A DNA stretch of 38,132 bases from a virus (IMGVR_UViG_3300027908_000014:1-38132), one strand, 5' to 3'. Positions 100 to 38,132 are shown, counted from the first letter of the stretch. Notes: generated from the sequence alone by a model not told the origin. Made by a program: numbers and translations.

Positions 100-227
100 A
101 CCCCTCGCTCCTCGCTACCCAAGGATGCTGCGCGTCCCGTCTTGTGCATGAGGTCGGCGGTAGGACTGAACTTGAAGTCCCGGTTGGTCGGCATGCCACG
201 GTGATTACGTTGACCACGCTTGCTCAC
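1..227 (-). CDS. Hypothetical protein, 5' part of a junction-spanning ORF (~131 aa; nt 100..227 continue into 38132..37865)
   Basis: GTG at 227..225 overlaps the TGA (226..224) of the upstream gene (GTGA). Manual translation VSKRGQRNHRGMPTNRDFKFSPTADLMHKTGRAASLGSEERGVTKPFSYW... stays open across the join. GC3 about 69%. Confidence 0.5.
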   Translation of the reverse strand, partial: MSKRGQRNHRGMPTNRDFKFSPTADLMHKTGRAASLGSEERGVTKPFSYWRRAPWSRPIADGGAPWWIRRARCKL

Positions 228-697
228 CACACCTTCCCTTCGGCTATTGGATCGGAACCATCGGGCAACGGAACGGATTGCATCGGCCCTGATGGGAGGG
301 CGGCGGCGATGAACCTCTCATGGTGCGGTAGCGGACACTCACCAGCCCGGTGCCGAGCGATGTGGTAATCACGATCAGCACCGCCCGGGAGGAACCCAGC
401 AAGGCTCGGACCTTCGATGCCGAACTCGGCCTTATACTTTTGGTCGCTCAGATCCTGAGCGTGCTTAGACGCTGACACGTAGAGGGCATCGGCCAAGCGC
501 ACGAACTTCCGCAGCCGCTCCAGCTCTTCGTCGCGAGCCGGGAGAGCCGCCAGGAGGGCGAGCGTGTCACGTGCCATCGCTATTTCGTTAGCCATTCGCT
601 TTGGGCGACCAGGCCAGGGGCCAAGGACGTTGGCCATGAGAGTGATACTGGCCCGCACTCTTGCCCGCTCCACCAGTTCGGCTACGTCGTCAGTCAC
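224..697 (-). CDS. Hypothetical protein (~157 aa)
   Basis: C-terminal two thirds of track ORF 224..997. GTG at 697..695 overlaps the TGA of ORF 694..915 (GTGGTGA). The N-terminal Thr/Ala/Gly/Arg-rich extension of the track ORF looks non-coding. Start could also be 700 or ATG 637. Confidence 0.55.
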   Translation of the reverse strand: MTDDVAELVERARVRASITLMANVLGPWPGRPKRMANEIAMARDTLALLAALPARDEELERLRKFVRLADALYVSASKHAQDLSDQKYKAEFGIEGPSLAGFLPGGADRDYHIARHRAGECPLPHHERFIAAALPSGPMQSVPLPDGSDPIAEGKVW

Positions 698-915: not shown

Positions 916-1025
916 CGGTCGTCCCGTCCGAAGTCCGGGTCGTCCCAGCAGCTGTACGTGCCCTCGTCGTCGTCATCGTCAAGTACGTCGTCGTCAATGA
1001 CGCCTGGGGGGTAGTTGTGCATCAT
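912..1025 (-). CDS. Small acidic ORF (37 aa, MMHNYPPGVIDDDVLDDDDDEGTYSCWDDPDFGRDDR)
   Basis: Below the track size cutoff; found by hand. It fills the RecT to next-gene gap exactly, with ATGA stop/start overlaps at both ends. Confidence 0.45.
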   Translation of the reverse strand: MMHNYPPGVIDDDVLDDDDDEGTYSCWDDPDFGRDDR

Positions 1026-2293
1026 CGCAACTGGTCCATCAGGGTCTGCGCATCGTTGTCGTCAACGATCTCAGCATCCTCGACGTCCCCGTCGTAGTCG
1101 ACCCCCTCGACTTCGGGGACCGCCACCGAGTCGGGCCAGCCCGCCACGATGTTGATGGCGTCTTGGAGTTTGGACGCGCTCAACTTGGGCAGATCCCCCC
1201 AACCGTGCTGGGCCAGGTAGGCCCGCACGATGGGCTGCTGACCCCGGTCGAGGTTGTTGATGATGGCCGTGAGTCCCTTGCGCAACTCCAGCCGTGCGGC
1301 GCTATCGGCTTCGACCTGTGCTTGCTCCTCGGGCGTGCGGTCAGCCACCCTCTTGCGCTTGGCCGGCGGGGTCGGTCCTGGTGCGGGCAAAGTACTCGTT
1401 GATTCGGTCGGTGACCCATCTTCGGCCACAGGAGCGGCCAGGGATGCAGATGACGACTCGCTCTCCGCGCTCGTAGGCGGCGATGACTCGCTGGGCAAAC
1501 TCGGATTGCCAGTCCCAGGCGGCGTCGAGGTGGGTGTGGGCGGCGGCGGGGTCGCTTGGGATGATGCACCTCCATCGTTGTCGTTACCGAAGTCTCGGAT
1601 CTCCTCGGGCGTGTAGCTCATGCCCGCCAGCACGTCGGCAAAGTGCCGCCGTCCCGCCCCTGACGTGGCGCGAGCGTCGAGCATGGCCCGAGGGTTCTTT
1701 TTCCACGCATCCTTGGCCAGCAGTCCCGCCGTGGCGGCGTCGATCATCGAGTAGGTGTACTCCTCCCACTCGCCCGCGGGCCAGTCCGAGCGGCGGCAAC
1801 GAGCCGTGGTGGCATCCTCGCCGTCGCGCAAGATGATCTGGTGGCCGTTGTCCATGATGAGGGCGCGCATGGACTCAGCAGTCAGGCCGACCTTGCCTTG
1901 GATCACATTGAAGCTGTCCAGCGCCTGCATGGGGCCGAACCCGAGTTCGTAGCCGCGCATGAAGCAGGCCAGGATGGCGTCAGGGCGGCCACGGAAGGCT
2001 ACTGGCACCATCTCGGTCGAGTGGATGGTGCGGGCCAGCTTCATGTAGTCACGGACGTATGGCAGGCCGCCAACCACCTTGGGCGGGATGGACGGGTAGG
2101 TGGGCTCGTACTCGACCACCTGTGGCGGGGCGGCCGGCACGATCTCGCCGTGTTCGGTCACCTCTTCGCTCATGTGGATCTCGGGGTGGACGATCACCTC
2201 GACCTCTTCGACGGTCGGCTCTTGTGGGGCCTCGACCTCGGCGCGCTTGGCCGAGAGGAGGCCAGCGAGGCTGGTGGTGGGGGTTTGGGTCAT
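1022..2293 (-). CDS. recT: RecT-family single-strand annealing recombinase with a long C-terminal extension (423 aa)
   Basis: RecT-like core (VPVAFRGRPDAILACFMRGYELGFGPMQALDSFNVIQGKVGL...AKDAWKKNPRAMLDARA). Start taken at ATG 2293 (MTQTPTTS), preceded by AAGGAGGAG and overlapping the exonuclease stop (ATGA), not the track start at 2422. Confidence 0.8.
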   Translation of the reverse strand: MTQTPTTSLAGLLSAKRAEVEAPQEPTVEEVEVIVHPEIHMSEEVTEHGEIVPAAPPQVVEYEPTYPSIPPKVVGGLPYVRDYMKLARTIHSTEMVPVAFRGRPDAILACFMRGYELGFGPMQALDSFNVIQGKVGLTAESMRALIMDNGHQIILRDGEDATTARCRRSDWPAGEWEEYTYSMIDAATAGLLAKDAWKKNPRAMLDARATSGAGRRHFADVLAGMSYTPEEIRDFGNDNDGGASSQATPPPPTPTSTPPGTGNPSLPSESSPPTSAESESSSASLAAPVAEDGSPTESTSTLPAPGPTPPAKRKRVADRTPEEQAQVEADSAARLELRKGLTAIINNLDRGQQPIVRAYLAQHGWGDLPKLSASKLQDAINIVAGWPDSVAVPEVEGVDYDGDVEDAEIVDDNDAQTLMDQLR

Positions 2294-3267
2294 GACTCCT
2301 CCTTGGTGGCGCTGTAGCGGAGGGTCCGCACAGAGGTGGTCTTGGCGAACTCCGCGGCGAGGGCGGGATGCGCCTCCTTGAGGGCCTTGGTGTCGAGGGT
2401 CGTGCGAGCCGATCCCTTCCACGTGACGACCTTCTGGCTGCCGACCATGCCAACCTCAGCATCACCCAACGTCGCCATGATCGTGGCGTCGATGGAGTCG
2501 AGGTCGCCCTTGATCCGCTCGGCCTGCTCTTTGAGGCTGACCCGCATGGCGAGGAGTTCGGAGGCGAATGGCCCGAGGTCGACCACCTTGTCGGGGTCGG
2601 GCTGCCAGCGGCGCTGGAGGGCCTTGCGGGTCGATTCGGACCCATCGGGCGGCGGGGCCACCTGATTGAGGACGTTCTGCCAGAAGGCTTCCTCGATGGC
2701 CACCAGGTCGGCAATGAGTTGGTCGTTGCGCTCGACCTCAGCGATGACCAGCTTCTGGCCGCCGATCAGGCAGGCGTAGTGGACGACGGGCAGGCCGAGG
2801 ACAGCGAGGTAGTGCTGCCCCTGGACGGCGTAGGTCAACGGGACGGTAACCGCCCCGTTCTCGTCCTCGGCCCACTGGTCAGCAAACCGGGTGGTCTTGA
2901 TTTCAAGCACCCCGTCGAGCTTGGTGGCCGGACCGGTCAGACGGTCGACGTTGGCGAACATGAACGGATAGTCCGTGTTGCGGACCATCCGGTTGAAGGT
3001 CTGGACCTCGATGCCGGTGCGCCGGGAGAACTCCTCAGCGATGGGATCTTCGAGCAGCTTGCCCCAGGTCTGGTACTCCTTCTCGTCGCCCGGGTCGGGC
3101 AGGACGCCTGCCACCTTCTCGGTCCACAGCTCATACGGCGAGCGCCACGTGGACACACCGGCCACCACCCCAGCGTCCGAGCCGCCCAGGCCGCCCAGCC
3201 GCAGCCGGTGCCACTCTGGTGAGTCCGAACCGATCTCGTCTAGGTCAGCGATGATCTCGATAGCCAT
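2290..3267 (-). CDS. YqaJ / lambda-Exo-like (PD-(D/E)XK) recombination exonuclease (325 aa)
   Basis: YqaJ-type N-terminus (WHRLRLGGLGGSDAGVVAGVSTWRSPYELWTEKVG) and EIK motif (LEIKTTR). It is paired with recT. Start at ATG 3267 (MAIEIIADL) has the SD AAGGAGG. Confidence 0.85.
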   Translation of the reverse strand: MAIEIIADLDEIGSDSPEWHRLRLGGLGGSDAGVVAGVSTWRSPYELWTEKVAGVLPDPGDEKEYQTWGKLLEDPIAEEFSRRTGIEVQTFNRMVRNTDYPFMFANVDRLTGPATKLDGVLEIKTTRFADQWAEDENGAVTVPLTYAVQGQHYLAVLGLPVVHYACLIGGQKLVIAEVERNDQLIADLVAIEEAFWQNVLNQVAPPPDGSESTRKALQRRWQPDPDKVVDLGPFASELLAMRVSLKEQAERIKGDLDSIDATIMATLGDAEVGMVGSQKVVTWKGSARTTLDTKALKEAHPALAAEFAKTTSVRTLRYSATKEES

Positions 3268-3396: not shown

Positions 3397-3456
3397 CTTT
3401 GGCCAGGAGACGCAGTGCTTGGGAGCAGAAGCAACCCTTTGGCCAGAAGCCTTACG

Positions 3457-3786: not shown

Positions 3787-3823
3787 CAGAGAGCACTACC
3801 CGCTATCCGCCTCGGGCAACCCA

Positions 3824-4965: not shown

Positions 4966-4981
4966 CAGGGGATCCTCCGTG

Positions 4982-6334: not shown

Positions 6335-6369
6335 GGACTAGGACAGGCCCTGGGACGTGATGGTCACGG

Positions 6370-26364: not shown

Positions 26365-26731
26365 GCTCCTTCTCCCAGTTCGCCTTCACGGTCGGTTCGA
26401 GATCCTCGGCGCGGACATCGGTCGAGTAGCCGTGCAGCTCGGCCAGCCCCTCCATGTCGCGGGCGTCGACGGTATCGAGCACGACGTCCATGCCCAACTC
26501 CTCGGACTCGCGCTCTTGGCCGGCGTGGAGCAGGGAGCGGAACTGGGCGTCGTTCTCGACGTACTGGCCGACGACGGGATCCCAGCGCCCCTGGTGCTTG
26601 AGGCTGGCCTTGTTGACCGAGAACGAGCGCAACCGCTTGGCCCGGTTGCCACATTCGAGGTCAACGATCGAGTCGGCGCAGACCTCGGACTCGATGATGC
26701 CGTGGCGGGGGCACACGTAGGCGTAGTTCAT
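26357..26731 (-). CDS. Hypothetical protein with an N-terminal Cys cluster (124 aa)
   Basis: Track ORF (MNYAYVCPRHGIIESEVCADSIVDLECGN...). Lies between TerL and portal. Confidence 0.55.
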   Translation of the reverse strand: MNYAYVCPRHGIIESEVCADSIVDLECGNRAKRLRSFSVNKASLKHQGRWDPVVGQYVENDAQFRSLLHAGQERESEELGMDVVLDTVDARDMEGLAELHGYSTDVRAEDLEPTVKANWEKEHV

Positions 26732-26734
26732 CGG

Positions 26735-28504: not shown

Positions 28505-28913
28505 CGCTGCGCGCCCCGACGCCGACTACGAACCGCCCCGGCGGGGTGGCCTTGCTCGGTGACTCTCGGATCCCCTTCATGTGGTCCATCAGATCATCAA
28601 TCGCCTCGCGTGTCCCCTCGGACGGACGCTTGCCCGCGGCAGCGATCTGGCGACCGAGCACCGCGCCGGCCACCCGGTTGGCGTCAGCCACCGAGCCGTG
28701 GTCGATGATCTGGCCGGCCCGCTTGAGGGTCCGCCACTGGAGGTGTTCGAGATACTCGGCCTGGTCCGCGGTGCCGTACTCGGCCACCAGCACCTCGCGC
28801 CGCATCTCCTTGCACAGGTCGGGGGGTAGGGAGAACACCTCGGACACGACCTCTGAGGGGACGCCGTGTTCGAGCGAGCGCCGCACCAGCGCCTCGTAGG
28901 CGGCGATGTCCAT
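28479..28913 (-). CDS. Candidate terminase small subunit (144 aa)
   Basis: Call is by position only: immediately upstream of TerL and overlapping it. Confidence 0.45.
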   Translation of the reverse strand: MDIAAYEALVRRSLEHGVPSEVVSEVFSLPPDLCKEMRREVLVAEYGTADQAEYLEHLQWRTLKRAGQIIDHGSVADANRVAGAVLGRQIAAAGKRPSEGTREAIDDLMDHMKGIRESPSKATPPGRFVVGVGARSDGADEDDA

Positions 28914-29119
28914 CAGTCCCAGCCCATCGTGACCTCGATGGTCACCGGCTCACCGCGCAGGTGGTGCAGGCCGAGCCCCATGTCGGCCGCTTCGCTCGGG
29001 ACGTGGAACACGACCGACACCGAGCCATTGGCTAGGCCCGATACCTTGAACAAGTGCGCCGGGATCTTGGTCTGGTCGGGATCCCCCTCGCCCGGTGGCC
29101 GGTTGACGGCAGCGATCAG
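28913..29119 (-). CDS. Hypothetical small protein (~68 aa); 5' end unresolved (CTG in a CTGA overlap, TTG ~29053, or a frameshift product)
   Basis: GC3 is 85-95% in this frame from 28913 to ~29100. There is no ATG/GTG/TTG in frame between ~29053 and 29596. C-terminus ...SVSVVFHVPSEAADMGLGLHHLRGEPVTIEVTMGWD. Confidence 0.45.
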   Translation of the reverse strand: MIAAVNRPPGEGDPDQTKIPAHLFKVSGLANGSVSVVFHVPSEAADMGLGLHHLRGEPVTIEVTMGWD

Positions 29120-29592
29120 GAGGTCATGGAACCTGGACCCTGTGGATCCGCTATCACCCTCAGCCGGGCGTTGCGCAGTTGACTCGACAAGACGTCGCGC
29201 TCCGTGTTCAATTGCCTCAGTTCTTCCGCCTCCGATTCCTCCCGCTCGAAGATCGCCTGGATCCCGGTCGGTAGCGGCATCTCCGTGTCGCTGTCGTAGT
29301 TCGGTGGCCGCAGCTGTTCGATCAGGAGCTGCTCGTCGGGCGGACCGCTCGTCGTCTGCTGGCGGCCCTGGAGGATCGAGAGGACCAGATCCTTCGTCTC
29401 CTTCTGGCTCTCCCGCTGCATCCTCTCCATCGTCGTCATCACCGTCGTCAGCACCGAAGCCAAGCTCTGCGAGTCCGACTGAGATGTGGCGGGTGGGGGG
29501 GGCGTGCTCGGCGTCGTAGTCGAAGTCATCGACGTAGGGCTCACGGACGGGGCCTCGTCTAACCACCGCCTCAGCCACGCTCTGAAAGTCAC
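29116..29592 (-). CDS. Hypothetical protein (158 aa; start uncertain)
   Basis: GC3 is 80-95% in this frame over 29161..29460, against 40-45% for the overlapping 227-aa track ORF. The second half is coiled-coil-like (MERMQRESQKETKDLVLSIL...EELRQLNTERDVLSSQLRNARL). Confidence 0.6.
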   Translation of the reverse strand: MTFRAWLRRWLDEAPSVSPTSMTSTTTPSTPPPPATSQSDSQSLASVLTTVMTTMERMQRESQKETKDLVLSILQGRQQTTSGPPDEQLLIEQLRPPNYDSDTEMPLPTGIQAIFEREESEAEELRQLNTERDVLSSQLRNARLRVIADPQGPGSMTS

Positions 29593-29609
29593 TCATTTAC
29601 ACCCCGCCT

Positions 29610-30071
29610 TTATTTGGCGAGCGCCTCCGACAGCGTTTCGCCAATGTGGACCGGGCCGCTACCAGTCGCGACCGAGCGCAACTGCCCCCGCCGAACCGGC
29701 TTCTTGGGCTTGGCCGCCTCGGCAGCCTTCTGCGCCTTCTCCACGGCGTCGAGATCCTTAGCCACCAGCTTGTCAGCGACCACCGACATGGTGCCCGCCT
29801 TGAAGGTCTGGAGCAGTTCCAACTCCCCCTTGTCAATGTCGACCAACTTGGGGGTGTGCGAGGTGACCACGACGCGCACAGCGATGGTCAGCACCTCCCC
29901 GATCTCGTAGATCCGCCCTTCGATCCCGCCCGTCGTCGGATCGAACCCGTCGTTGGAGTTGGCCAACTTGGTCTTAACCGAGGTGATCTTCTTACCCCGA
30001 TAGTCCCCGAGGTCGAGCATCGGCTGCTCTGCGGCTGCGGTCATTGCATCTTCTCCTTTGGTGGTGGTCAT
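29610..30071 (-). CDS. Hypothetical protein (153 aa)
   Basis: Track ORF. ATGA overlap with the upstream mini membrane ORF. Confidence 0.6.
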   Translation of the reverse strand: MTTTKGEDAMTAAAEQPMLDLGDYRGKKITSVKTKLANSNDGFDPTTGGIEGRIYEIGEVLTIAVRVVVTSHTPKLVDIDKGELELLQTFKAGTMSVVADKLVAKDLDAVEKAQKAAEAAKPKKPVRRGQLRSVATGSGPVHIGETLSEALAK

Positions 30072-30208
30072 CGGCTGAACTTCTTGAAGTCATCGCGCCA
30101 GTGTGACCCGTCGCTCTCGGGAGCGGAATGGTCACGGAACGCGAAGTACATGAAGGCCCAGTACGCCGCGCCGATGCCGCCGACCCACAGGATCCGTAGC
30201 CACATCAT
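30068..30208 (-). CDS. Mini membrane ORF (46 aa, MMWLRILWVGGIGAAYWAFMYFAF...)
   Basis: C-terminal part of track ORF 30068..30520. ATGA overlaps at both ends. Confidence 0.5.
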   Translation of the reverse strand: MMWLRILWVGGIGAAYWAFMYFAFRDHSAPESDGSHWRDDFKKFSR

Positions 30209-30420
30209 CTGCACAACTTCGCGAATCGCTTGGTCACGTTCTGGCGCGACGTGGCGGTGCCGCGGGCAATCAGATCCCAGGAGCACCCAGCCTCTCGGGC
30301 CTCGACCACTCGGGTGTCGAGCGCCTCCTTGCAGGAGTTGACCGCGGCCACAGCTTCGGCAATGTACGCGATCCACTCGTCGCCATTGCCGCTTTCGTCG
30401 GTGACCGCCACCGCTGTCAC
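30205..30420 (-). CDS. Helix-turn-helix DNA-binding protein (71 aa)
   Basis: HTH-like C-terminus (GCSWDLIARGTATSRQNVTKRFAKL). GTG start in a GTGA overlap with the stop of 30417..30818. Confidence 0.55.
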   Translation of the reverse strand: MTAVAVTDESGNGDEWIAYIAEAVAAVNSCKEALDTRVVEAREAGCSWDLIARGTATSRQNVTKRFAKLCR

Positions 30421-30818
30421 TTCGTCGGGCGCGAGATGGGGAGGACTTGGCCGCCGGGGGGCACGTGGCCCCGGACGCCGTTGCTTTGGATCCCTTGCAG
30501 GCGGGCCATGTTCTGCGCATGCTCGGCGGCGGCCCGCTGCTTTTCCCACTCCTTCTCCTGCTGGGTCAAGTCCTTCTCGATCTGGTCGAGCTGCTTGGCC
30601 CGCTGGCCCTCGAAGTCGAAGTCAGCGCGGTCGAGGATCCCGGCGTCGAGGGCGAGGTGCTTGAGGTAGGTGGTCGCCCGCAAGGAGTCGAAGGCACCTT
30701 CGAGCGTCACCTGGCCGTTGGTCCGCTCCTTGATGGCGAAGATGCGGGCCTCGTTGTCATCTTTGAGGATGGCGTGCGCGCCCTCGTCGCTCAGGTCGTC
30801 TCTATTAGAGATCATCAT
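30417..30818 (-). CDS. Hypothetical protein (133 aa)
   Basis: Track ORF with protein-like composition. Confidence 0.6.
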   Translation of the reverse strand: MMISNRDDLSDEGAHAILKDDNEARIFAIKERTNGQVTLEGAFDSLRATTYLKHLALDAGILDRADFDFEGQRAKQLDQIEKDLTQQEKEWEKQRAAAEHAQNMARLQGIQSNGVRGHVPPGGQVLPISRPTK

Positions 30819-31245
30819 CTTCGAATACCTCGGGCATCATGGCACGCATATCAGCGCGCATAGCGGTCGTTTCGGCAACCAACAATCTTTCGGATTCGTA
30901 GTCACGGTCAAGGTGAGTCCCACTCAAAGCGGTCAAACGCTGCGCCTCGTTTTCGGGCCAGGAGCACTCTCGCCCTACATGCTGCTCCCAGGCGGTGTAG
31001 AGAACCTGAGTCAAGTCAGAGCGAGAAACGATCATCGGATCGTGCACGCCACCAGCGATGGCTTCGGCAATCGGTTCACTGACTCCACGGTCAATGAACT
31101 CCAACACAGCATCGACGCATGGGGGGCACAGCGTTGGGTCAGTAGCCGATTTAGTTCGGATTGTTCCCCACAGAGTTTGCTCCTTGGCCAGGAGCACTTG
31201 CACCAATCCGCAGCGGTCGCATTTCCAATGAATATCAACTGCCAT
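30805..31245 (-). CDS. Hypothetical Zn-ribbon-like protein (146 aa), atypical codon usage
   Basis: CxxC...CxxC (WKCDRCG...LCPPCVD). GC3 is visibly lower (~50%) than in neighbours. It has its own promoter-like signal and an ATG at leaderless distance. Confidence 0.6.
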   Translation of the reverse strand: MAVDIHWKCDRCGLVQVLLAKEQTLWGTIRTKSATDPTLCPPCVDAVLEFIDRGVSEPIAEAIAGGVHDPMIVSRSDLTQVLYTAWEQHVGRECSWPENEAQRLTALSGTHLDRDYESERLLVAETTAMRADMRAMMPEVFEDDDL

Positions 31246-31251
31246 GCTGCA

Positions 31252-31280
31252 AGGTTACTTACCGCAACCTCGCTTGTCAA
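31252..31280 (-). promoter_or_regulatory. Candidate promoter for a leaderless transcript of 30805..31245 (-35 TTGACA, 17 bp, -10 TAACCT, 6 nt, ATG)
   Basis: Hexamers read on the minus strand in the 37-nt gap. A 6-bp hairpin (aaggtt/aacctt) overlaps the spacer and -10. Confidence 0.5.
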
Positions 31281-31284
31281 TCCT

Positions 31285-32016
31285 CTAGATCGTCGGCGGT
31301 GTCCCCGGGTCGACGCTCGGGCTGGCCGACGATACCGCAGTCGTCTCGTCAGGAGCGGGGGCGGCCAGTGATTCAGTGGTGAACGTGGGGGCATCCGTAG
31401 CACCGGACCCGGTGGCATAAAAACCGCCGATCGTCTGCCCGGGCGCGAAGACGATCGGCGTGGTGATCCTGTTTTCACCGGTCGGAAGCGGCGTGTCGTC
31501 CTCGACCGGTGGCACTACCCCGGCCTCGGGGTTGCGCGGCGGCAGCGATACCGGGGCCGTCTCAGGCGCAGAAGCCAGGACGGGGGGAACGACGACCGCT
31601 CCGCCCTTGGTGTGATCCCGCAGCTTGGCGACGGCGGCCTCGACCACGTTGATCCCGGTGCGCAACGAGTCCAGGGCCACGGTGATGCCGTCGAGCAGTG
31701 GCTTGAGCTCGGGGTCGATTGCCTCGCCGACCGAGGCGGCAGCAGAAGCGATGCCCGCCAACTCCCTGGTGTCGCTGGCCAGGCCGTCCCTCGGCAGCAC
31801 CATCCCGGCCACCTTCTCGACTTCTCGTTCCACGTCACCAATGAGGTTGGATTCCATGAGGCGCGACGATAGCAAGGCTTCGTGCTCGATGTGAAGGGCG
31901 TTTCGGAGAAACTTTCCTCGGGCGCGAAGCGACCCCCCAAACGGGGGGCCGTAATCGCTGATATGACTGAACACGCTCTCCAACGCACTGCCATCTTTGC
32001 AGGTTATGTTGCGCAT
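31285..32016 (-). CDS. Hypothetical protein (243 aa; start uncertain), first gene left of the control region
   Basis: Track ORF. ATG 32016 has no SD and sits inside a TTGACA hexamer. The C-terminal half is Pro/Thr/Ala-rich. Confidence 0.5.
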   Translation of the reverse strand: MRNITCKDGSALESVFSHISDYGPPFGGSLRARGKFLRNALHIEHEALLSSRLMESNLIGDVEREVEKVAGMVLPRDGLASDTRELAGIASAAASVGEAIDPELKPLLDGITVALDSLRTGINVVEAAVAKLRDHTKGGAVVVPPVLASAPETAPVSLPPRNPEAGVVPPVEDDTPLPTGENRITTPIVFAPGQTIGGFYATGSGATDAPTFTTESLAAPAPDETTAVSSASPSVDPGTPPTI

Positions 32017-32035
32017 GTCAAGCCAAGGGTACCAG

Positions 32036-32065
32036 TTGACATTTCGGCCTGGCGGCGCGCATCAT
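32036..32065 (+). promoter_or_regulatory. Candidate rightward promoter (-35 TTGACA, 18 bp, -10 CATCAT), back to back with a leftward TTGACA at 32016..32021
   Basis: Hexamers read directly. There is no credible ORF downstream for ~900 nt. Confidence 0.3.
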
Positions 32066-32071
32066 GACGTC

Positions 32072-32335
32072 GAGGGGCTGCGGTCCCGACAGAACACTTA
32101 TTTCTCCATTGCGAACCCGGGTAGCCAACGAGCCCCGGAGGCCGGGACCCCTGGACACAGGGTTTGCGATCGCGCACCTAAGACGTGGGGTGCGAGGGCT
32201 GAACCAACGTCGAATGTACCGACGACTGGTGCCTGACAGCGGTGATGATGCGGTCTGTGCAACTCGAAACGGACGAGGAGCATGGGGGGAAGTGTCTCTA
32301 GAAGCTAACGCTTGCGTTAGCGCTTGTCCTTTAGA
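32072..32335 (+). ncRNA. Candidate non-coding transcript (~250 nt) from the promoter-like signal to a hairpin plus U-rich tail
   Basis: No ORF with genome-typical GC3. Ends at stem GCUAACG-CUUG-CGUUAGC (32304..32321) followed by GCUUGUCCUUUAGAUU. Internal pairings include GGTCCCG/CGGGACC and CCCTG-GACA-CAGGG. Unverified. Confidence 0.25.
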
Positions 32336-32400
32336 TTCAAAGGCTGCTACCGCACAATCCGCTTCGCTAGGATTGCTTGGTGTCTAAAACATTGTTAGCG

Positions 32401-32428
32401 ATTTTTTAAAAGTTCACCGCTAAAAAAT
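32401..32428. other. AT-rich hairpin / possible DNA-unwinding element
   Basis: atttttta (32401..32408) pairs with taaaaaat (32421..32428), with a 12-nt loop. This is the most AT-rich spot in the window. A CATAAT -10 on the minus strand lies at 32430..32435. Confidence 0.35.
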
Positions 32429-32598
32429 GATTATGAGCGGGGGATAGCGTGTGTGGATACCTCCCCTTCTCTAGTCCAGCCGGTGGGCCAAACGGTCTGC
32501 ATCGTCCAATGATCGTGTATCGGGCTGTGTGCAAGGGTCGTACACAGGAACTGCCCGGCCCCCCTAGGCACGTGTGACGATCTCGGAGGGAGGGAGTG

Positions 32599-32616
32599 GG
32601 AGGAGGAGGAGGAGGA
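32599..32616 (+). repeat. (GGA)6 microsatellite within a 33-nt polypurine tract (32585..32617)
   Basis: Read directly: ggagggagggagtgggaggaggaggaggaggag. Confidence 0.9.
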
Positions 32617-32878
32617 GCAGCATGAGCAGCAGCGTGCAAGGATCGTGTACTGAACTGCAATGCATTACATGTAATACGTAACGAGTCATTGAGTGCGTGC
32701 AAGCTAGCTTCACCACCTGACCCTCCAGCCAGCCTGTGGATAGCTTGTGCAAGGGTCATGCACAACCAGCATCAGGGGAGGGGGCGGGGTCAGTAGACCT
32801 CGGTGGCCGTCCACAGGGCGACACCGGTTTGGCCTTTCATCGTCCAGCGATCTGGCCGCGCATGCTACGCAACAAAGG

Positions 32879-32908
32879 TTGACACTGTGGTGCAGGGTGT
32901 GCAAGGAT
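32879..32908 (+). promoter_or_regulatory. Candidate rightward promoter of the plus-strand operon (-35 TTGACA, 18 bp including TGc, -10 AAGGAT), overlapped by motif copy 32898-32916
   Basis: Perfect -35 at 32879..32884 and an extended -10-like TGcAAGGAT at 32900..32908. The first plus-strand ORF starts ~55 nt downstream. Confidence 0.4.
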
Positions 32909-32968
32909 CGTAGACAGCGGCCGACGAGTGATCGGCTGCAGACTTGAGGGAGAGTGGGGGTGAAGGGT

Positions 32969-33127
32969 ATGAGTGCGGAGCGGGATGCGTATCAGGCAAG
33001 TGTCGACTTCAACAGTCTGATGGACTCGTTGGACTACGACGGGAAGGTCGTTTGGGTCAAAGCGGACATTGCACGGATGGATGCCGAACTTGATAGCGAC
33101 CGGTGCACAGCACACAGCCACGACTAG
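32969..33127 (+). CDS. Small ORF (52 aa, MSAERDAYQASVDFNSLMDSLDYDGKVVWVKADIARMDAELDSDRCTAHSHD)
   Basis: Not in the track. A G-rich SD-like stretch precedes the ATG. GC3 is about 69% and the composition is protein-like. Confidence 0.45.
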   Translation: MSAERDAYQASVDFNSLMDSLDYDGKVVWVKADIARMDAELDSDRCTAHSHD

Positions 33128-33186
33128 TCGAAACGCCGTTAGGCGTCGTGGTCAACTAGGCCACCTGATGAGACTTGGGAGCAGAC

Positions 33187-33390
33187 ATGGACGCTAAGCA
33201 CAGAGCAGTCGTGACCTGTCAATACTGCCGCCAGCCGCTGGACGATTCCGATGGCGCTTCATGGCCGCATTGCCCGGCGTGCGATCTGATTATCCGTACC
33301 GCCGCCCTTCGCTTGATCGAGCTGGCCGACGATGACGACACTGGCACGCAGAGGTTGGCCATCGCCTTGGGCGAACTGCTGGTGCCATGA
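33187..33390 (+). CDS. Zn-ribbon protein (67 aa)
   Basis: CxxC...CxxC (CQYCRQ...HCPACD). GGGAGC lies 5 nt before ATG 33187. The track ORF starts at TTG 33175. Confidence 0.55.
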   Translation: MDAKHRAVVTCQYCRQPLDDSDGASWPHCPACDLIIRTAALRLIELADDDDTGTQRLAIALGELLVP

Positions 33391-33686
33391 GCTCAATCCT
33401 CTGCGCTCGGTGCGATGACGCACCACGTGTCCCCGGTGGCGTCTTTTGCCCACGCTGTGAGGCGGAGGTACGTCACGGTGGCGAATCGGTGGCACGGTTG
33501 GCCGTCCCTCCAGTTCTAGCCCCTCCTGCGAAGCCACAGGCCGTCTCCCGAGTGGGTCGACCACCCTCGGAGTGTTGGTTTTGCACTGGCGGCACGCCAC
33601 CGAGTGATCCACCACCACCGATGTGTGACGCCTGCGATGACCTCATGTGCGACTTCTTGGCGTGGCTGCGCGCCTTGCGGTCGTGA
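33387..33686 (+). CDS. Cys-rich (multiple CxxC) protein (99 aa)
   Basis: CARCDD...CPRCE and CWFC...CDACDDLMC. ATGA overlap with the upstream stop. Confidence 0.55.
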   Translation: MSSILCARCDDAPRVPGGVFCPRCEAEVRHGGESVARLAVPPVLAPPAKPQAVSRVGRPPSECWFCTGGTPPSDPPPPMCDACDDLMCDFLAWLRALRS

Positions 33687-33892
33687 AGGGGTTCCGCCGG
33701 GAAGTCGTCTACGGTCGCCAGGAGATTGCCGAGATGGTGGGGGTCAAACTGGGGACCGTCCATTCGTGGTCACAACGAGGGGTGTCGTTCCCATTCCCGG
33801 CCCCGGACCTGACCGTCTCGGGGCTGCCAGCGTGGTACGCCTCGACCGTCGAGGAATGGGCGCTACTGGCCGGACGCGAGCTGGCCCGTTAG
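33683..33892 (+). CDS. Helix-turn-helix (MerR/excisionase-like) DNA-binding protein (69 aa)
   Basis: YGRQEIAEMVGVKLGTVHSWSQRG...P.W. GTG start in a GTGA overlap. The 3' end overlaps the rusA 3' end by 30 nt (convergent). Confidence 0.6.
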   Translation: MKGFRREVVYGRQEIAEMVGVKLGTVHSWSQRGVSFPFPAPDLTVSGLPAWYASTVEEWALLAGRELAR

Positions 33893-34249
33893 CTCAAGCA
33901 CCACGCCGTTGGGGCCGCGCTGAGGGGGTCGCATCATGATCCCCAATATCTCCTTGCCGGTGTCATCAGAGAGGATGCCAGCGTCACGCAGGCCGTCGAC
34001 ACAGGCTTTGACCACGCCGGTATGAGCCCCGGTGTCGGCCAGGACGCCCTTGGCCTGGTACGGCCAGCACTCGATGGTCACGGTGGCGAATCGTGGCAAC
34101 CAGATCTGTTCGGCGGCGGTCGCTGTCGTGGCCCGTCGCCATTTGGCGATGACTGTGCCCTGGGTGCGGTAGTGCGTGCGTTTCTGCCAGTTCATCGTCA
34201 TCATGACCGCTGGGGCGTCAACGACGAGCCGATAGGTGTCAGGCATCAT
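33863..34249 (-). CDS. rusA: RusA-like Holliday junction resolvase (128 aa)
   Basis: RusA-like layout: VTIECWPY...ADTGAHTGVVKACVDGLRDAGILSDDTGKEI...GVVLELTG. Confidence 0.7.
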   Translation of the reverse strand: MMPDTYRLVVDAPAVMMTMNWQKRTHYRTQGTVIAKWRRATTATAAEQIWLPRFATVTIECWPYQAKGVLADTGAHTGVVKACVDGLRDAGILSDDTGKEILGIMMRPPQRGPNGVVLELTGQLASGQ

Positions 34250-34385
34250 CCTCAGGCGGGGCCTCTGCCGCTACCGAGCCGACCAACGCCACCAGCGCCA
34301 TCAGGCGGTCACGTGTGCGGTCAGCCGGCCGAAGGTGGCCGTACCACTGGGCCTCGAAGCCGTCAGCCAGCTCCTCGCGTGTCAC
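34242..34385 (-). CDS. Small ORF (47 aa, VTREELADGFEAQWYGHLRPADRTRDRLMALVALVGSVAAEAPPEDDA)
   Basis: Found by hand. GTGA overlap upstream and an 8-nt overlap with the rusA start. High GC3. Confidence 0.45.
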
Positions 34386-34564
34386 CAGCCGACTTCCTCG
34401 CGGTCAATCGGCCAAGGGACGATGACGACAGCTGGCGACGGTTCAGCGTCGTGGCGACGCGGTTGGAGCTCCATCCCCTCTGAACGCGGCCGGTCCATCC
34501 ACGCAGCCACACAGAACAGGGCCAGGACGCCGACGATCATCGGGACAAAGATCCAGTGGGTCAC
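34382..34564 (-). CDS. Small membrane protein (60 aa)
   Basis: Start taken at GTG 34564 (GTGA overlap). Hydrophobic span WIFVPMIVGVLALFCVAAW. Confidence 0.5.
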   Translation of the reverse strand: MTHWIFVPMIVGVLALFCVAAWMDRPRSEGMELQPRRHDAEPSPAVVIVPWPIDREEVGW

Positions 34565-34800
34565 GACTGCCACGGCTTCTGATGCACGACGATGAACCAC
34601 CAGACACCGGTAGCGATATTCGGCCAGCCCACCCAGTCATGGGCACCGAGCCTCGCCCCACCGAGCCAGATCATGAAAACCCCAGCGCAGACCAGCACCG
34701 GCTCGCGGAGATGACCCAAGAACCACAGCTCCCGTAGCGTGCCCCACCAAGACCGGTCCGCCTCACAGCGTGCGACAAACTCAGATTTCGTCGGCTTCAC
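34561..34800 (-). CDS. Small membrane protein (79 aa)
   Basis: GTG 34800 overlaps the C5-MTase stop (GTGA) just after GGGGAGGGG. Hydrophobic spans VLVCAGVFMIWLGGA and IATGVWWFIVV. The track N-terminus (34561..35091) overlaps the MTase and is rejected. Confidence 0.55.
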   Translation of the reverse strand: MKPTKSEFVARCEADRSWWGTLRELWFLGHLREPVLVCAGVFMIWLGGARLGAHDWVGWPNIATGVWWFIVVHQKPWQS

Positions 34801-35555
34801 AACCCCTCCCCCTTGTCGGCTCCGGTGCTCTGAGGGGCCAGGTGGGCGAGGTGGGCGAGGAGTTGGGCGCCTATGAATTCTGTGTAGGCGGGAGGGATGG
34901 CCTGAGTCATTTCGTCGCGGGTCATCCATTCCACCCCCATCACACCGGCCGCGGCCTTGGTGGATGCTCCAGCCGTGTGCCCAGCAGGATCGGGCAATAC
35001 ACCAGTGACGCCGGCAGATGCGTGCGAATAACGGTTCCCAAGCATCCGACCGTGGCCTATGACCTCTCGATGCCTTTGGTGGGGATGGCACATGACCAGG
35101 AAGTTCGCCTCAAAGAGCCGGTGTCGATACATGCGAAGCCCGAAGTCCAACCCGCAGAGCATGAACGGTTCGACCAGCGGAGCGCCCATCACGTTTTCGA
35201 TGACATAAGTGAGGCCGGTTTGGATCAAGAGAGCACGCACTGGCTCAATCAGCAGCGGGTATTCCCTATCCCTTAGCCAGGGCAGGTGCCGCATCCGGCT
35301 ATACCCCTGGCATGGTGGACTGGCGTGAACCGCATCGAAGTGACCGAGGCACGGGCCTAATCGACCACGCTCATGCCAACAACCTTTGCGAACGTCCTGC
35401 ACCATCGCCGTGGCATCGGCCTGGTGGAACTCAAACGGGTAGTGCGGCTGGGGCTCGATGTCCACGCCCACCACGTCGAAGCCCGCACGGTGATAGCCCA
35501 TTGCCGCCCCGCCGGCGCCCGAAAATAAATCAAGGAGTCTCGGTCGGGGGCTCAC
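34797..35555 (-). CDS. DNA (cytosine-5) methyltransferase, orphan (252 aa)
   Basis: Motif I DLFSGAGG, motif IV ASPPCQGYS, motif VI YVIENV. Start taken at GTG 35555 (GTGA overlap with the 24-aa mini-ORF); the track start is 35561. Confidence 0.9.
   Translation of the reverse strand: MSPRPRLLDLFSGAGGAAMGYHRAGFDVVGVDIEPQPHYPFEFHQADATAMVQDVRKGCWHERGRLGPCLGHFDAVHASPPCQGYSRMRHLPWLRDREYPLLIEPVRALLIQTGLTYVIENVMGAPLVEPFMLCGLDFGLRMYRHRLFEANFLVMCHPHQRHREVIGHGRMLGNRYSHASAGVTGVLPDPAGHTAGASTKAAAGVMGVEWMTRDEMTQAIPPAYTEFIGAQLLAHLAHLAPQSTGADKGEGL
34802..34838 (-). repeat. Junction element copy A (37 nt, identical to 35625..35661)
   Basis: acccctcccccttgtcggctccggtgctctgaggggc. It encodes the last residues PQSTGADKGEG of the C5-MTase and carries the SD for the next ORF. 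Confidence 0.9.
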
Positions 35556-35626
35556 GGACACACTTCCCCCCGCTCGAGGAGGACTTCGGTGTCGAAGCGG
35601 TCGTCGTCGAAGAACGGCTCTGTCAC
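35552..35626 (-). CDS. Relay mini-ORF (24 aa, VTEPFFDDDRFDTEVLLERGEVCP)
   Basis: GTGA overlaps at both ends bridge the two methyltransferase genes. GC3 is about 83%. Confidence 0.45.
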   Translation of the reverse strand: MTEPFFDDDRFDTEVLLERGEVCP

Positions 35627-36402
35627 CCCTCCCCCTTGTCGGCTCCGGTGCTCTGAGGGGCGGTCAGGAGGACGCCTTGTGCGAGACGACCAACTGCGGT
35701 TTCGCAATACGCCTCGTTGGCCTCAATCCCGATTGCCCTGCGGCCCAACTCTCGAGCACCGACCAGCGTTGAACCGCTGCCCATGAAGGGGTCAAACACG
35801 GTCCATCCCGGCGCCGTTGAATAGCGAATGAGTGGGTCAAGGATGCCCAGTGGCTTCTCGGTCGGGTGGTTGCTTGAGCCATGACACGACCGGACCTCAA
35901 TGACGGTGGTTGCGAGTCGTGGGCCTCCGTCGACCGTCCGGTATGTTCCACCGCTGGCAATCTCACCCATGTGTGCTGGCCGTCGTTTCGTGCGCTTCAC
36001 TGAACGAGCGGTGGCATCCATCGTGACCGGAACGTCCAGCCTCAGCCCACGCCATTCGCCTCGGTAGAAGTGGACTGCCTGCTCATGGATACGGCGGAAT
36101 CGGTCGGCGTGAAAGCTCGATCCGTTGTGCTTTTTCCACACAACGTCCTGGCCGAACTTCCAATCTGAGAACTCGGCGGCGTGGCCCATGAACATTTTGA
36201 GCGACCCAAAACACCACATTTCATCGAACGGGATCAGACTCGGCCAACCGTCAACCCAGCGGTCCCACCCGAGACTCGTTTGCCCATAGGGCGGGTCAGT
36301 AACGGTGACAACTGGGGCGTGATCGAACGTCAGCGTAGGAATGATCTCGCGCATGTCCCCGTGATAGATCGTGATGCCGTCCTGTTCGTAATACGGCCTC
36401 AC
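35623..36402 (-). CDS. DNA N6-adenine / N4-cytosine methyltransferase (DPPY type), orphan (259 aa)
   Basis: Motif IV TDPPYG near the N-terminus and motif I VFDPFMGSGSTLVGA near the C-terminus (beta-class order). GTG start in a GTGA overlap after GAAGGAG. Confidence 0.9.
   Translation of the reverse strand: MRPYYEQDGITIYHGDMREIIPTLTFDHAPVVTVTDPPYGQTSLGWDRWVDGWPSLIPFDEMWCFGSLKMFMGHAAEFSDWKFGQDVVWKKHNGSSFHADRFRRIHEQAVHFYRGEWRGLRLDVPVTMDATARSVKRTKRRPAHMGEIASGGTYRTVDGGPRLATTVIEVRSCHGSSNHPTEKPLGILDPLIRYSTAPGWTVFDPFMGSGSTLVGARELGRRAIGIEANEAYCETAVGRLAQGVLLTAPQSTGADKGEG
35625..35661 (-). repeat. Junction element copy B (37 nt, identical to 34802..34838)
   Basis: Read directly. The bases flanking both copies differ on each side. 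Confidence 0.9.
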
Positions 36403-37133
36403 TCCTTCATCTCCGCGATGAACCCGTCAACCTCTTCGTTGGTCACCCCGTCGATGCCCTCGGCACCGTGGTCGTCGTGAAGGGCGAGAGCCTGGGCGAT
36501 ATCACCTTGGTGGATTGCCTCGGCCAGTTCTCGCAGTTCGGGCGTGAGTGTGGCGTCAGCCAAGTGCTTCGCGATGCGGAACGCTGTCTTGAAGTCGTCA
36601 CCTTTGACGGGACGGTCCCCCGTTATGCGCCACTTGTCGAGGTCGTCCACTGACAACCCCTCTTCGGAAGAACTGTCAGCGATGACGCCAAGCATCCACG
36701 CCAGACGCCCTGACTGTTTCCGCAGCCTTTCGTTCTCGGCCTCTAGCTCGGTGACGCGGGCTTCGGCTTCGTCGCGCTGATGTTTGATCGAAATCGCGGG
36801 CGTGTGCTTGGCGGCGGCGATCTGCTCAGCGGTCAACGAACGTGCGGCTCCCCCCGCCTCCCCTTGTTCGGCTCGGTGAGAGGTGGCGAGGGGTGGGTTC
36901 TCTCCTCGGCGGACCCTGATCGGCTCAATTATCGCGTCGTAGGCATCCCGAAGGCGCAGCGCCCAGCGCCTCATTAGTTCGTCCAGTTCTTCACTCACGT
37001 CATCGTGGTAGCGGCGACGCACAATCTCGGCAGCGACGGTCATCACTTCTTTTTCCTCGGGCTTGATGGGCCGCGTCGTTCCGATGATTCGTCCCCTCGC
37101 CGCCGCCTCATCCTCTACGGGTACGTCAGGCAT
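36399..37133 (-). CDS. Hypothetical protein (244 aa), possibly a fusion of two former ORFs
   Basis: Track ORF with SD GGAG 6 nt before the ATG. Contains an in-frame degenerate junction element (…PPLATSHRAEQGEAGGAAR…) and a coiled-coil segment (EAEARVTELEAENERLRKQ). Confidence 0.6.
   Translation of the reverse strand: MPDVPVEDEAAARGRIIGTTRPIKPEEKEVMTVAAEIVRRRYHDDVSEELDELMRRWALRLRDAYDAIIEPIRVRRGENPPLATSHRAEQGEAGGAARSLTAEQIAAAKHTPAISIKHQRDEAEARVTELEAENERLRKQSGRLAWMLGVIADSSSEEGLSVDDLDKWRITGDRPVKGDDFKTAFRIAKHLADATLTPELRELAEAIHQGDIAQALALHDDHGAEGIDGVTNEEVDGFIAEMKE
36851..36895 (-). repeat. Degenerate, in-frame relic of the junction element
   Basis: cccccgcctccccttgttcggctcggtgagaggtggcgagggg aligns with copies A and B with a few substitutions and indels, and has no stop codon. 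Confidence 0.6.
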
Positions 37134-37188
37134 CGAAACTCCGATCCAGTCGTTCGAGCTGAATCGACTTGCATTCGTGCAGGCTCAC
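37126..37188 (-). CDS. Possible relay mini-ORF (20 aa, VSLHECKSIQLERLDRSFDA)
   Basis: GTG overlaps the RNA ligase stop (GTGA). Its stop overlaps the next ATG (ATGCCTGA). GC3 is only ~65%, so the coding status is doubtful. Confidence 0.25.
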   Translation of the reverse strand: MSLHECKSIQLERLDRSFDA

Positions 37189-37218
37189 TTCACCCCTCCC
37201 TTGTCGGAGGCTTCGGGG
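37184..37218 (-). repeat. Junction element copy C (35 nt, 34/35 identical to 37864..37898)
   Basis: ctcacttcacccctcccttgtcggaggcttcgggg. It encodes PEASDKGGVK-stop of the RNA ligase. Confidence 0.9.
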
Positions 37219-37868
37219 GTGGGGGGGAAGTCACGCCCCTTGACTTTGACGATGATGCGTTCACCCTTGCGGTTGAACAGCGGGACGGTAGGCGTGCCGA
37301 CAATCCCTTCTATGCGTACGTTCTCCCAGGCCGATTGGACACGCTTGCAGCGGACCTTGGCGATGGCTTCGTTGAGTGTGAATGTGCCGATCACGGGAAC
37401 GGTGCGGAGTCCCAACTTTTCGGCCACGTCCGCCACATCTTCGGGTTGGAGCCACCAGTCCCCCACTCGCACGTCGAACAGGATGAAGTCGCACCCTTCG
37501 GGGTTGTAGTTGCCGGCGCCCTTTTGGACCTTGCGCCCGTAGCCTTCGCCGTAGAGCGTGGCCGATTGCGAATCGGGGAACGCTGCCTCCAGGTCGCTGG
37601 CCGTGAAGATGTCGGCCAGGCGGTCGTAAAGGAACGTCGGCATCTGGGCGTTGTCGGTGCGCCCACCGAACTGCACGACCGGGGCATTCTGGTCAGTGTG
37701 ATACAGGTACACCCGTACGTTGGTCCCGTCGACCTTCTCGGTCCAGCGCCAGTCCAACTCGGCCAGATAGCCGAACTCGGGACAGGCCCAGTCACCGTCG
37801 ATCAACTGGCCCTTCTCGTCGCGCTTGAACACGCTATTGATCTTCTGGTACTCGCGCATCTCACTCAC
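37185..37868 (-). CDS. RNA ligase family protein (nucleotidyltransferase domain only, 227 aa)
   Basis: Motif I lysine context WTEKVDGTNVRV, as in Pab1020/DraRnl-type RNA ligases. Later EGYG and KVK-type motifs. GTG start in a GTGA overlap 6 nt after GGAGG. Confidence 0.65.
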   Translation of the reverse strand: MSEMREYQKINSVFKRDEKGQLIDGDWACPEFGYLAELDWRWTEKVDGTNVRVYLYHTDQNAPVVQFGGRTDNAQMPTFLYDRLADIFTASDLEAAFPDSQSATLYGEGYGRKVQKGAGNYNPEGCDFILFDVRVGDWWLQPEDVADVAEKLGLRTVPVIGTFTLNEAIAKVRCKRVQSAWENVRIEGIVGTPTVPLFNRKGERIIVKVKGRDFPPTPEASDKGGVK

Positions 37869-37898
37869 TTCACCCCTCCCTTGTCGGATGCTTCGGGG
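37864..37898 (-). repeat. Junction element copy D (35 nt)
   Basis: ctcacttcacccctcccttgtcggatgcttcgggg. It encodes PEASDKGGVK-stop of the junction-spanning ORF. Confidence 0.9.
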
Positions 37899-38132
37899 AG
37901 GGGGCGTCCGTCCTGGTCGATTCCGGAGGCAGCGAGGATGGCGACGGCCAGCGGGCGCTCGTCGTCAAACGACTCACCACATCGAGTGCAGTAGGAACCC
38001 AGTGGGATCATGAGGTCATATCGGGCATGGCCGAGGAGCTTGCAGCGTGCCCGGCGTATCCACCACGGCGCACCACCATCAGCGATGGGTCGGGACCAGG
38101 GGGCACGTCGCCAATAGCTGAATGGCTTAGTC
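37865..38132 (-). CDS. 3' part of the junction-spanning hypothetical ORF (see 1..227)
   Basis: Manual translation ...WWIRRARCKLLGHARYDLMIPLGSYCTRCGESFDDERPLAVAILAASGIDQDGRPLPEASDKGGVK-stop. Open to the window end. Confidence 0.5.
   Translation of the reverse strand, partial: TKPFSYWRRAPWSRPIADGGAPWWIRRARCKLLGHARYDLMIPLGSYCTRCGESFDDERPLAVAILAASGIDQDGRPLPEASDKGGVK
38034..38132. repeat. Terminal identity, copy 2 (same 99-mer as 1..99)
   Basis: Read directly. Confidence 0.95.

Follow-up and report, generated by a model that had tools for sequence, protein, structure and literature searches.

Why should unrelated enzymes of one phage end in the same few amino acids? The question is raised by IMGVR_UViG_3300027908_000014:1-38132, a viral DNA of 38,132 nucleotides (nt) that was analysed at its full length and is here called the window. 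In its non-structural region, two pairs of near-identical repeats of 37–41 nt (pairs A and B) form the last codons of otherwise unrelated genes. A first-pass annotation of this DNA had named three possible roles for these elements, a start-associated coupling element, a recombination linker between exchangeable cassettes and a functional C-terminal tag, and had left the choice between them undecided. The evidence now favours a coupling core together with an extended identity that derives from recombination. Most likely, the repeats mark points where gene cassettes have recombined into the genome, and the common protein tails came about as a by-product. We therefore read the repeats as translational-coupling junction modules that were duplicated by homologous recombination in a hyperplastic region, and assign this reading a probability of roughly 0.55.

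The two copies of pair A (A1 and A2) are identical at 37 of 37 positions and start 823 nt apart. Those of pair B (B1 and B2) agree at 34 of 35 positions (37184-37218 versus 37864-37898), and although both sets of coordinates had been given correctly at first pass, the match in pair B can be extended to 38 of 41, where the longest exact run is 25 nt and the spacing 680 nt. On the coding strand, pair A reads GCCCCTCAGAGCACCGGAGCCGACAAGGGGGAGGGGT and pair B reads CCCC[CT/AC]CCCCGAAGC[A/C]TCCGACAAGGGAGGGGTGAAGTGAG. Pair A contains no differences, while the three in pair B comprise one synonymous change and two within a single codon (L to T), a pattern that gives no sign of selection on the peptide apart from the DNA.

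The four copies encode the final 11–13 residues of four unrelated open reading frames (ORFs). The flanks of each pair are unrelated on both sides, with no extended homology beyond the repeats in any flank, which bears out the earlier statement that these gene ends did not arise by gene duplication. In a k-mer repeat scan, the genome had no long dispersed repeats other than pairs A and B and a perfect 99-nt direct repeat at its termini (bases 1-99 equal 38034-38132). This terminal overlap indicates that the contig is circularly closed, giving a genome of about 38,033 bp, and an ORF that runs across the contig junction is thus an ordinary ORF. All of the elements lie on one strand of the non-structural region. 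Each pair encloses a single cassette: for pair B an RNA ligase, and for pair A a C5 cytosine DNA methyltransferase, which lies between A2 and A1 together with an upstream 62-nt spacer and mini-ORF (Table 1).

What the two pairs have in common is short. As had been noted at first pass, they share only CCGACAAGGG, an indel of 0 or 2 nt (GG), and AGGGGTGA. The resulting core, CCGACAAGGG(GG)AGGGG-TGA, is a strong Shine–Dalgarno (SD) sequence just before an overlapping stop and start (GTGA), and this 4-nt overlap is present in all four copies, as the earlier reading of the elements had it. The string CCGACAAGGG(GG)AGGGGT likewise occurs in 4/4 copies and nowhere else in the window. The SD-like run, GGGGGAGGGG or GGGAGGGG, sits in the 3′ end of the upstream gene, 1–6 nt before the GTG. 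At A1 it is followed by TTGTGA, where the stop (34797-34799) shares bases with the GTG (34800-34798) that starts an ORF for a predicted membrane protein of 79 aa; at B1 the stop overlaps a GTG at 37868, with the probable ATG of the RNA ligase at 37859.

An SD just before an overlapping stop and start is the standard layout for coupling by termination–reinitiation. Intragenic SD motifs upstream of 4-nt overlaps promote this process (Huber et al. 2019, PMC6728339), and every copy here resembles the overlapping gene pairs of that study, with an SD in the upstream 3′ end followed by the GTGA overlap. Unlike the elements, however, ordinary coupled junctions (PMC6728339) carry neither long identical repeats nor a common tail on unrelated proteins. 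Among the gene starts in 25900-38132 and 1-7841, most have no recognisable SD, and strong SDs are limited to a few early genes: the YqaJ exonuclease gene, the RecT gene and those at the junction elements. Neighbouring genes in the same intervals often overlap by ATGA or GTGA.

Similar junctions, of the form SD-N-GTGA(GC), occur in the relative with the closest homologue of the N6/N4 DNA methyltransferase (L033). They include GGGGGAGGGGACGTGAGC and GGGTGGGTGAAGTGAGC, and its gene-end junctions also include GAGGGGGAGGGGACGTGAGC and GAGAACGGGTGGGTGAAGTGAGC, the last of which resembles pair B and a weak site at 222-264 of the window. Because L033 has such junctions at several gene ends, the core is best regarded as a functional junction common to the lineage. 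Positions 2795-3090 of L033 hold an uncalled ORF of about 100 codons, whose start is the GTGA overlap that follows a B-like junction (GGGTGGGTGAAGTGAGC) and whose end is another GTGAGC junction; many ORFs in the lineage begin GTG-AGC ('VS...').

The tails themselves are add-ons and not part of the enzymes proper. The Pfam and PHROG domains stop short of them, in agreement with the first-pass view that they lie outside the catalytic domains, and homologues also end before them. All 14 aligned homologues of the N6/N4 methyltransferase (55–79% identity) end at RLAQGVL plus a few variable residues, so the body of this enzyme is conserved with relatives and the tail is an addition. In L033, the stop comes right after GVLL, and nucleotide homology to the window ends before the element. 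For the RNA ligase, tblastn homology to phage ligases starts at residues 3–6 and, among the top-listed matches, ends at residue 214–218 of 227; for the C5 methyltransferase, the top-listed tblastn alignments end at residue 231 of 254. The gene caller of the public assemblies starts the latter enzyme at ATG 35501 (234 aa). A GTG at 35561 or 35555 is the likelier start, since the ATG removes the DLFSGAGG AdoMet motif.

The extended 37–41-nt element is absent elsewhere. It was not present in relatives fetched via the N6/N4 methyltransferase, RecT or the small protein that forms part of a 244-aa ORF, and no comparable junction repeats were found in about 16 relatives. Nor does it occur in IMG/VR, where the core pattern gave 28 single matches (chance level by our own estimate), or in the JGI metagenomes, where the core pattern gave 83; none of these matches is related to the window. 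The RNA ligase and the 244-aa protein, used as anchors in IMG/VR, retrieved nothing. No further gene-end copies thus came to light in relatives, IMG/VR or the JGI metagenomes, and since it is found nowhere else, the extended identity looks like the outcome of recent common descent inside this one genome.

Candidates that resembled the element were set aside. A JGI sub-family ending in ...ADKGEG-stop proved to be unrelated conserved sequence, whose 'ORF' is usually just 18 codons long. The sequence is some 60 nt long, has no relation to the window and turns up in many metagenome contigs that are themselves unrelated (L050, L061, L064, L067, L070, L073, L075, L077, L087, L092, L093, L115, L120 and L122). 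One frame reads ...(K/W)(C)PQP(M/I/K)(K/N)GxGGRxADKGEG-stop, followed by TTGGCC, and in L093 the upstream frame has a peptide stretch that, in our opinion, looks like a translated tRNA gene; the ORF of about 18 codons is probably not the real content of this sequence. A 39-nt repeat in a distant relative (L143, 3003-3041 and 3296-3334; SD with ATGA overlap) was likewise rejected as a comparable junction. It belongs to an ordinary tandem gene duplication, the two adjacent genes being paralogues that share ...MLAFIEKVA.W...EAF.LIKKVRG.

The region from RecT to RusA is hyperplastic. RecT, the N6/N4 methyltransferase and RusA are common to the window and L033, while 0 of the L033 genes between RecT and the methyltransferase have a homologue in the window. 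The lack of homologues rests on tblastn; tblastx of the variable regions was set aside, as its summed E-values were spurious, arising from GC-rich short segments. Within the region, a degenerate copy of the element had been proposed inside the 244-aa ORF. Its sequence alone does not support this (E = 4.9 against a profile of the four good copies, with about 5 such matches expected in 76 kb on both strands), but its position does. In an exhaustive representative search, all 10 homologues of the 244-aa ORF were small stand-alone proteins (48–145 aa) that match residues 12–81 only, and in the alignment most of them end at, or a few residues from, ...EPIRVRR. Nucleotide homology between the window and three relatives (L127, L144 and L145) breaks off at 36903, 36904 and 36907, respectively, and the gene that comes next differs in each. 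The decayed copy lies directly downstream, in frame, of the point where these relatives end their stand-alone gene. By our own estimate, the chance that one match falls on the right strand, no more than about 60 nt from a gene boundary mapped by independent means, is roughly 0.004.

The 244-aa ORF is consequently read as a fusion across a decayed element, and the loss of homology in the relatives at this point indicates that the elements coincide with mosaic boundaries. No homologues were detected for the remaining 145 or so residues of the ORF, and a further search seeded with the whole protein recovered nothing but the query. The second part might have a start of its own at an in-frame TTG near residue 100; the core of the small-protein family reads AAEIxRRRYxDDVSxELDExMxxWAMRL. 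The array thus runs B1, RNA ligase, B2, small protein, relic, C-terminal part, then a plain AAGGAGTGA junction, N6/N4 methyltransferase, A2, spacer and C5 methyltransferase, A1 and the 79-aa ORF. The more diverged copy placed at about 221..250 at first pass is only a weak nhmmer match (222-264); there, an ORF that crosses the contig junction has its GTG start (227) in overlap with the stop of an ORF that ends at 224.

Table 1. Junction elements and neighbouring genes of the window, with positions counted from its first base
Feature	Position	Strand	Remarks
Element A1	34802..34838	-	Last codons of C5 methyltransferase (...APQSTGADKGEGL-stop); 37/37 versus 35625-35661
Element A2	35625..35661	-	Last codons of N6/N4 methyltransferase (...APQSTGADKGEG-stop)
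Element B2	37184..37224	-	Last codons of RNA ligase (...PPTPEASDKGGVK-stop); 38/41 versus 37864-37904
Element B1	37864..37904	-	Last codons of 131-aa junction-crossing ORF (...RPLPEASDKGGVK-stop)
Probable decayed fifth copy	36845..36900	-	CCCCTCGCC...GCCGAACAAGGGGAGGCGGGGGG; in frame inside 244-aa ORF
Weak junction of the same general type	222..264	-	GCCGAAGGGAAGGTGTGGTGAGC; nhmmer E = 1.3
RNA ligase cassette	37185..37868	-	Bracketed by B1 and B2; PF09414, 4.5e-19, residues 40-210; phrog_548
C5 cytosine DNA methyltransferase	34797..35561	-	PF00145; phrog_363, residues 5-240
N6/N4 DNA methyltransferase	35623..36402	-	PF01555, 5.9e-29, residues 34-236
244-aa ORF	36399..37133	-	Apparent fusion of conserved small protein (residues ~12-81), decayed element and unrelated C-terminal part
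131-aa ORF through contig junction	227 to 37865 (3′ part 37865..38132, continuing from 227-100)	-	Coding status uncertain
79-aa ORF	34561..34800	-	Predicted membrane character; start at GTGA overlap of A1
RusA	33863-34249	-	
YqaJ-type exonuclease	2290-3267	-	PF09588 on called gene
RecT-like annealing protein	1022-2293	-	phrog_561 and phrog_4171, RecT-like

How could such an array have arisen? We propose that the core SD with its overlapping stop and start acts as a translational coupler by termination–reinitiation. The 37–41-nt identity within each pair would be dispensable for coupling, and would instead be a footprint and a potential substrate of homologous recombination. The SD/stop–start junctions of the lineage may serve as short homologies, such that two unequal crossovers, or the integration of an excised circle, would put a foreign gene between two junction copies. 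The RNA ligase and C5 methyltransferase cassettes would have been placed in this way, with recombination probably performed by the YqaJ/RecT pair or by RecA. Each new cassette would remain coupled to its neighbours. As the module sits upstream of the stop codon, it is translated, so that unrelated proteins would gain the same tail of 11–13 residues.

The lengths of the repeats are compatible with such a process. The YqaJ/RecT pair (1022..3267, minus strand) is the phage's own recombination pair and is encoded directly upstream of the variable region. In phages, mosaicism is driven via short homologies by Rad52-like recombinases, and minimal efficient pairing segments have been put at 23–27 bp for Red-beta and 31–34 bp for RecA (De Paepe et al. 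2014, PMC3945230). The longest exact matches, 37 nt in pair A and 25 nt in pair B, exceed or lie at the Red-beta minimum, and the 37-nt run is also longer than the RecA figure.

Several observations weigh against this explanation. At A2, the overlapping GTG opens only a 24-codon mini-ORF, and the C5 methyltransferase starts 62 nt downstream in the +1 frame. At B2, it opens only a 20-codon mini-ORF, and the next gene starts 52 nt downstream in the frame of the ligase. The real genes after A2 and B2 have their own purine-rich leaders. Direct coupling is thus plausible at only two of the four copies; the first-pass description, in which SD, stop and following start all belong to the element, holds directly at A1 and B1, while at A2 and B2 it holds for mini-ORFs only. 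In addition, because most genes here lack a strong SD, the unusually strong SD of the elements could serve another purpose, and the perfect identity of pair A could also be kept by selection or gene conversion. Lastly, exact-protein look-ups of four window proteins, which might have revealed variants that have gained or lost a cassette, recovered the identical genome only, and we infer the history of recombination from this single genome.

A further point of this kind speaks for a different explanation, in which the whole 37–41-nt element is a selected cis-acting site. It might form a hairpin whose C-rich 5′ arm hides the SD and enforces strict coupling, form an intercistronic processing or stabilising hairpin, or bind a factor in the manner of the SAS/ESAS repeats of mycobacteriophages. 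Indeed, a run of C (GCCCCTC, CCCCTCCCC, CACCCC or CCCCTCGCC) lies 15–25 nt upstream of the G-rich SD in 5/5 copies, and minimum-energy folds pair the two. The stem-loops of T4-type phages likewise have polyG/polyC tracts beside the SD and start codon (PMC2839356), it has been suggested that coupled genes are kept from initiating de novo by local structure (PMC6728339), and the restriction of the elements to one strand of the non-structural region would fit a cis-acting role. However, RNA folding, which had been named as a check at first pass, lends this explanation no support. Fold energies are no better than those of dinucleotide shuffles (z from -1.1 to +1.1), and RNAalifold gave no compensatory changes among the copies. 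There is also no Rfam match, promoter or terminator at the elements, the extended sequence is not kept in relatives that share the flanking genes, and pairs A and B differ all through the putative loop and 5′ arm. A selected site of this kind is possible, but we consider it unlikely.

Somewhat more doubtful is a stronger version of the recombination hypothesis, in which the elements belong to a dedicated, integrase-free cassette system. Here, an in-frame 3′ linker with SD and stop/start would allow YqaJ/RecT to take up cassettes of one gene, release them as circles of 680 and 823 bp and rearrange them, with each automatically staying coupled to its neighbours.

It is improbable that the C-terminal peptides (…STGADKGEG and …PEASDKGGVK) are functional tags for targeting, packaging or turnover, the third of the roles suggested at first pass. 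That the same short hydrophilic tail occurs on unrelated enzymes, outside their catalytic domains, would suit a tag. The conservation, however, is at the nucleotide level and includes all wobble positions in pair A, the sole amino-acid change in pair B is non-conservative (L to T), and the two tail types have only D-K-G in common. Moreover, the closest homologues of every enzyme are without such a tail, and metagenome scans gave no related peptide context.

Still less credible is the idea that the elements are recoding signals, with a prfB-like +1 frameshift at A2 producing a fused N6–C5 methyltransferase, and read-through at B2 joining the RNA ligase to the next gene in frame 0. The frames and open spacers at A2 and B2 would allow it, as the C5 methyltransferase lies in the +1 frame behind a 62-nt spacer without a stop. 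At A2, where the N6/N4 methyltransferase ends ...GAG GGG UGA C, an SD-like AGGGGGAG stands immediately 5′ of GGG-UGA-C, an arrangement that we take to resemble the prfB +1 frameshift site. Yet an open 20-codon spacer is expected about half the time in a genome of 65% G+C, and one of three frames will always suit some recoding event. The spacing from the SD to the shift codon is unlike that of prfB, and A1 (UUG UGA) and B1 do not fit. The idea fits some copies only, and has no statistical weight.

That the repeats are assembly artefacts, either collapsed or chimeric joins, is essentially refuted: short repeats can mislead de Bruijn assemblers, and the Logan contig (k = 31) breaks in repeat A, but every reading frame is intact and assemblies of different samples with k = 141, 127 and 99, all greater than the repeat length, are 100% identical over both pairs. 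The region is 100% identical in ENA assemblies ERZ27255970 (k141), ERZ28653432 and ERZ923594 (k127), and in Logan SRR3984957. The end of the k = 31 contig at 35632, inside repeat A, is what a genuine 37-nt repeat would produce. This agreement of independent assemblies indicates that the repeats are real, and the findings that could have undone the first-pass description, whether from assembly or from homologues that share the tails, did not appear.

Junction modules duplicated by recombination, the explanation preferred here, can be compared with several known systems. The closest in behaviour are the promoter-early stem-loop (PeSL) cassettes of T4-type phages (Arbiol et al. 2010, PMC2839356). 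In both cases, short repeated junctions cluster in a hyperplastic early region and border single accessory genes; they terminate in an SD and the start of the next gene, and have the potential to form stems between G-tracts and C-tracts. In both, cassettes of one gene would be cut out or inserted when adjacent copies recombine. PeSLs, however, lie between genes, include a sigma-70 promoter and a functional terminator, reach about 50 copies per genome, and have been shown to vary between close relatives and to form mini-circles (PMC2839356). The elements described here are found in 4–5 copies, lie in frame inside the 3′ ends of genes, are translated, and have no promoter or terminator. A scan of 33800-38132 for sigma-70 consensus promoters found no promoter-like sites, and no terminator call or T-tract was present at the elements. 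The parallel with PeSLs drawn at first pass therefore stands for behaviour, that is, for cassette flanking in a hyperplastic region, and not for composition.

A second parallel, with the SAS/ESAS repeats of Cluster K mycobacteriophages (Pope et al. 2011, PMC3203893), is less apt. SAS repeats have a 13-bp consensus (GGGATAGGAGCCC), occur in 11–19 copies at 3–7 bp upstream of start codons, and are conserved across subclusters at orthologous genes (PMC3203893). Like the elements, they are asymmetric repeats of the non-structural half in one orientation, which overlap the ribosome-binding-site position a few bases upstream of starts and sometimes include the upstream stop codon. The elements, in contrast, are pairwise near-identical 37–41-mers in 4–5 copies, of which only two directly precede a real gene. 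The SAS consensus has one match with 2 mismatches in the window (11177, other strand), where 1.55 would be expected by chance, and SAS-like conservation was not seen in relatives, as those sharing the N6/N4 methyltransferase, the small protein and RecT are without the elements. The comparison consequently fails on consensus and conservation, and fits poorly on copy number.

The 'linker' idea for modular exchange in lambdoid phages reportedly goes back to Susskind and Botstein. In lambdoid mosaicism driven by Rad52-like proteins (PMC3945230), short homologies at gene boundaries act as crossover points; similarly, the phage described here encodes an exonuclease/annealing-protein pair, and the lengths of its repeats match minimal pairing segments. 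There, however, the homology is between genomes, whereas here it takes the form of direct repeats within one genome, with no partner genome known. Integron cassettes (a gene plus an attC site) are alike in layout only, in that promoter-less single genes stand in an array and each is closed by a related short element with inverted-repeat potential. Unlike attC sites, the elements are translated and have no attC-type core site, and no integron integrase or related recombinase was present among the ORFs scanned, which were part of those in the genome. Among these systems, the elements would belong with short junction repeats that mark, and probably also mediate, modular exchange, as far as one genome sequence can tell.

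The wider setting is that of a tailed phage with 65% G+C, in which the minus strand holds nearly all genes. A P22/SU10-type portal, terminase, a 1460-aa tail protein and a GH25 lysin are followed by the early non-structural region, whose order in the direction of transcription is YqaJ exonuclease, RecT-like annealing protein, small ORFs, the 131-aa junction-crossing ORF, RNA ligase, the 244-aa ORF, N6/N4 methyltransferase, C5 methyltransferase, the 79-aa ORF and RusA. The portal protein has only about 22% identity to that of any isolate phage, and no GenBank phage was matched when 25 kb of the window were compared by megablast. The accessory enzymes are most like those of actinobacteriophages, and the identical genome is present in soil-metagenome assemblies.

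Some stretches of the genome are less readily interpreted. The 131-aa ORF that ends in B1 has a weak third-position G+C (GC3) signal and was left uncalled by the gene caller of the public assemblies. It forms part of a stretch of about 860 nt without a called gene there (694 to 37868 via the contig junction, minus strand), in which the third-position signal is weak and two frames, 697-224 (157 aa) and 227-37865 (131 aa), are open; neither matches a family and their coding status is uncertain. At 32000-33000, G+C falls to 57% and there is no convincing ORF. This segment adjoins three small plus-strand ORFs (33175-33892, one of them helix-turn-helix-like) that oppose the main transcription, and is probably a regulatory or divergent-promoter region; no integrase was noticed. 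In the structural genes, GGN/CCN-type repeat runs at 6400-7000 and 19000-19350 (minus strand) encode Gly-rich, collagen-like stretches, and similar collagen-like repeats occur in two relatives (L035 and L037).

How phages acquire and shed single accessory genes while keeping their operons expressed has so far been argued mostly from comparisons between genomes. Here, the proposed crossover sequences are direct repeats around two enzyme cassettes within one genome. The proposed crossovers would fall at mosaic boundaries mapped to the base against relatives, next to the phage's RecT-type recombination genes. If borne out, the proposal would broaden the PeSL concept, since a translated junction of about 40 nt, with an SD and stop/start only, would act both as an expression signal and as a recombination handle. 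Identical C-terminal tails on unrelated phage proteins may accordingly be translated junction DNA, rather than functional tags.

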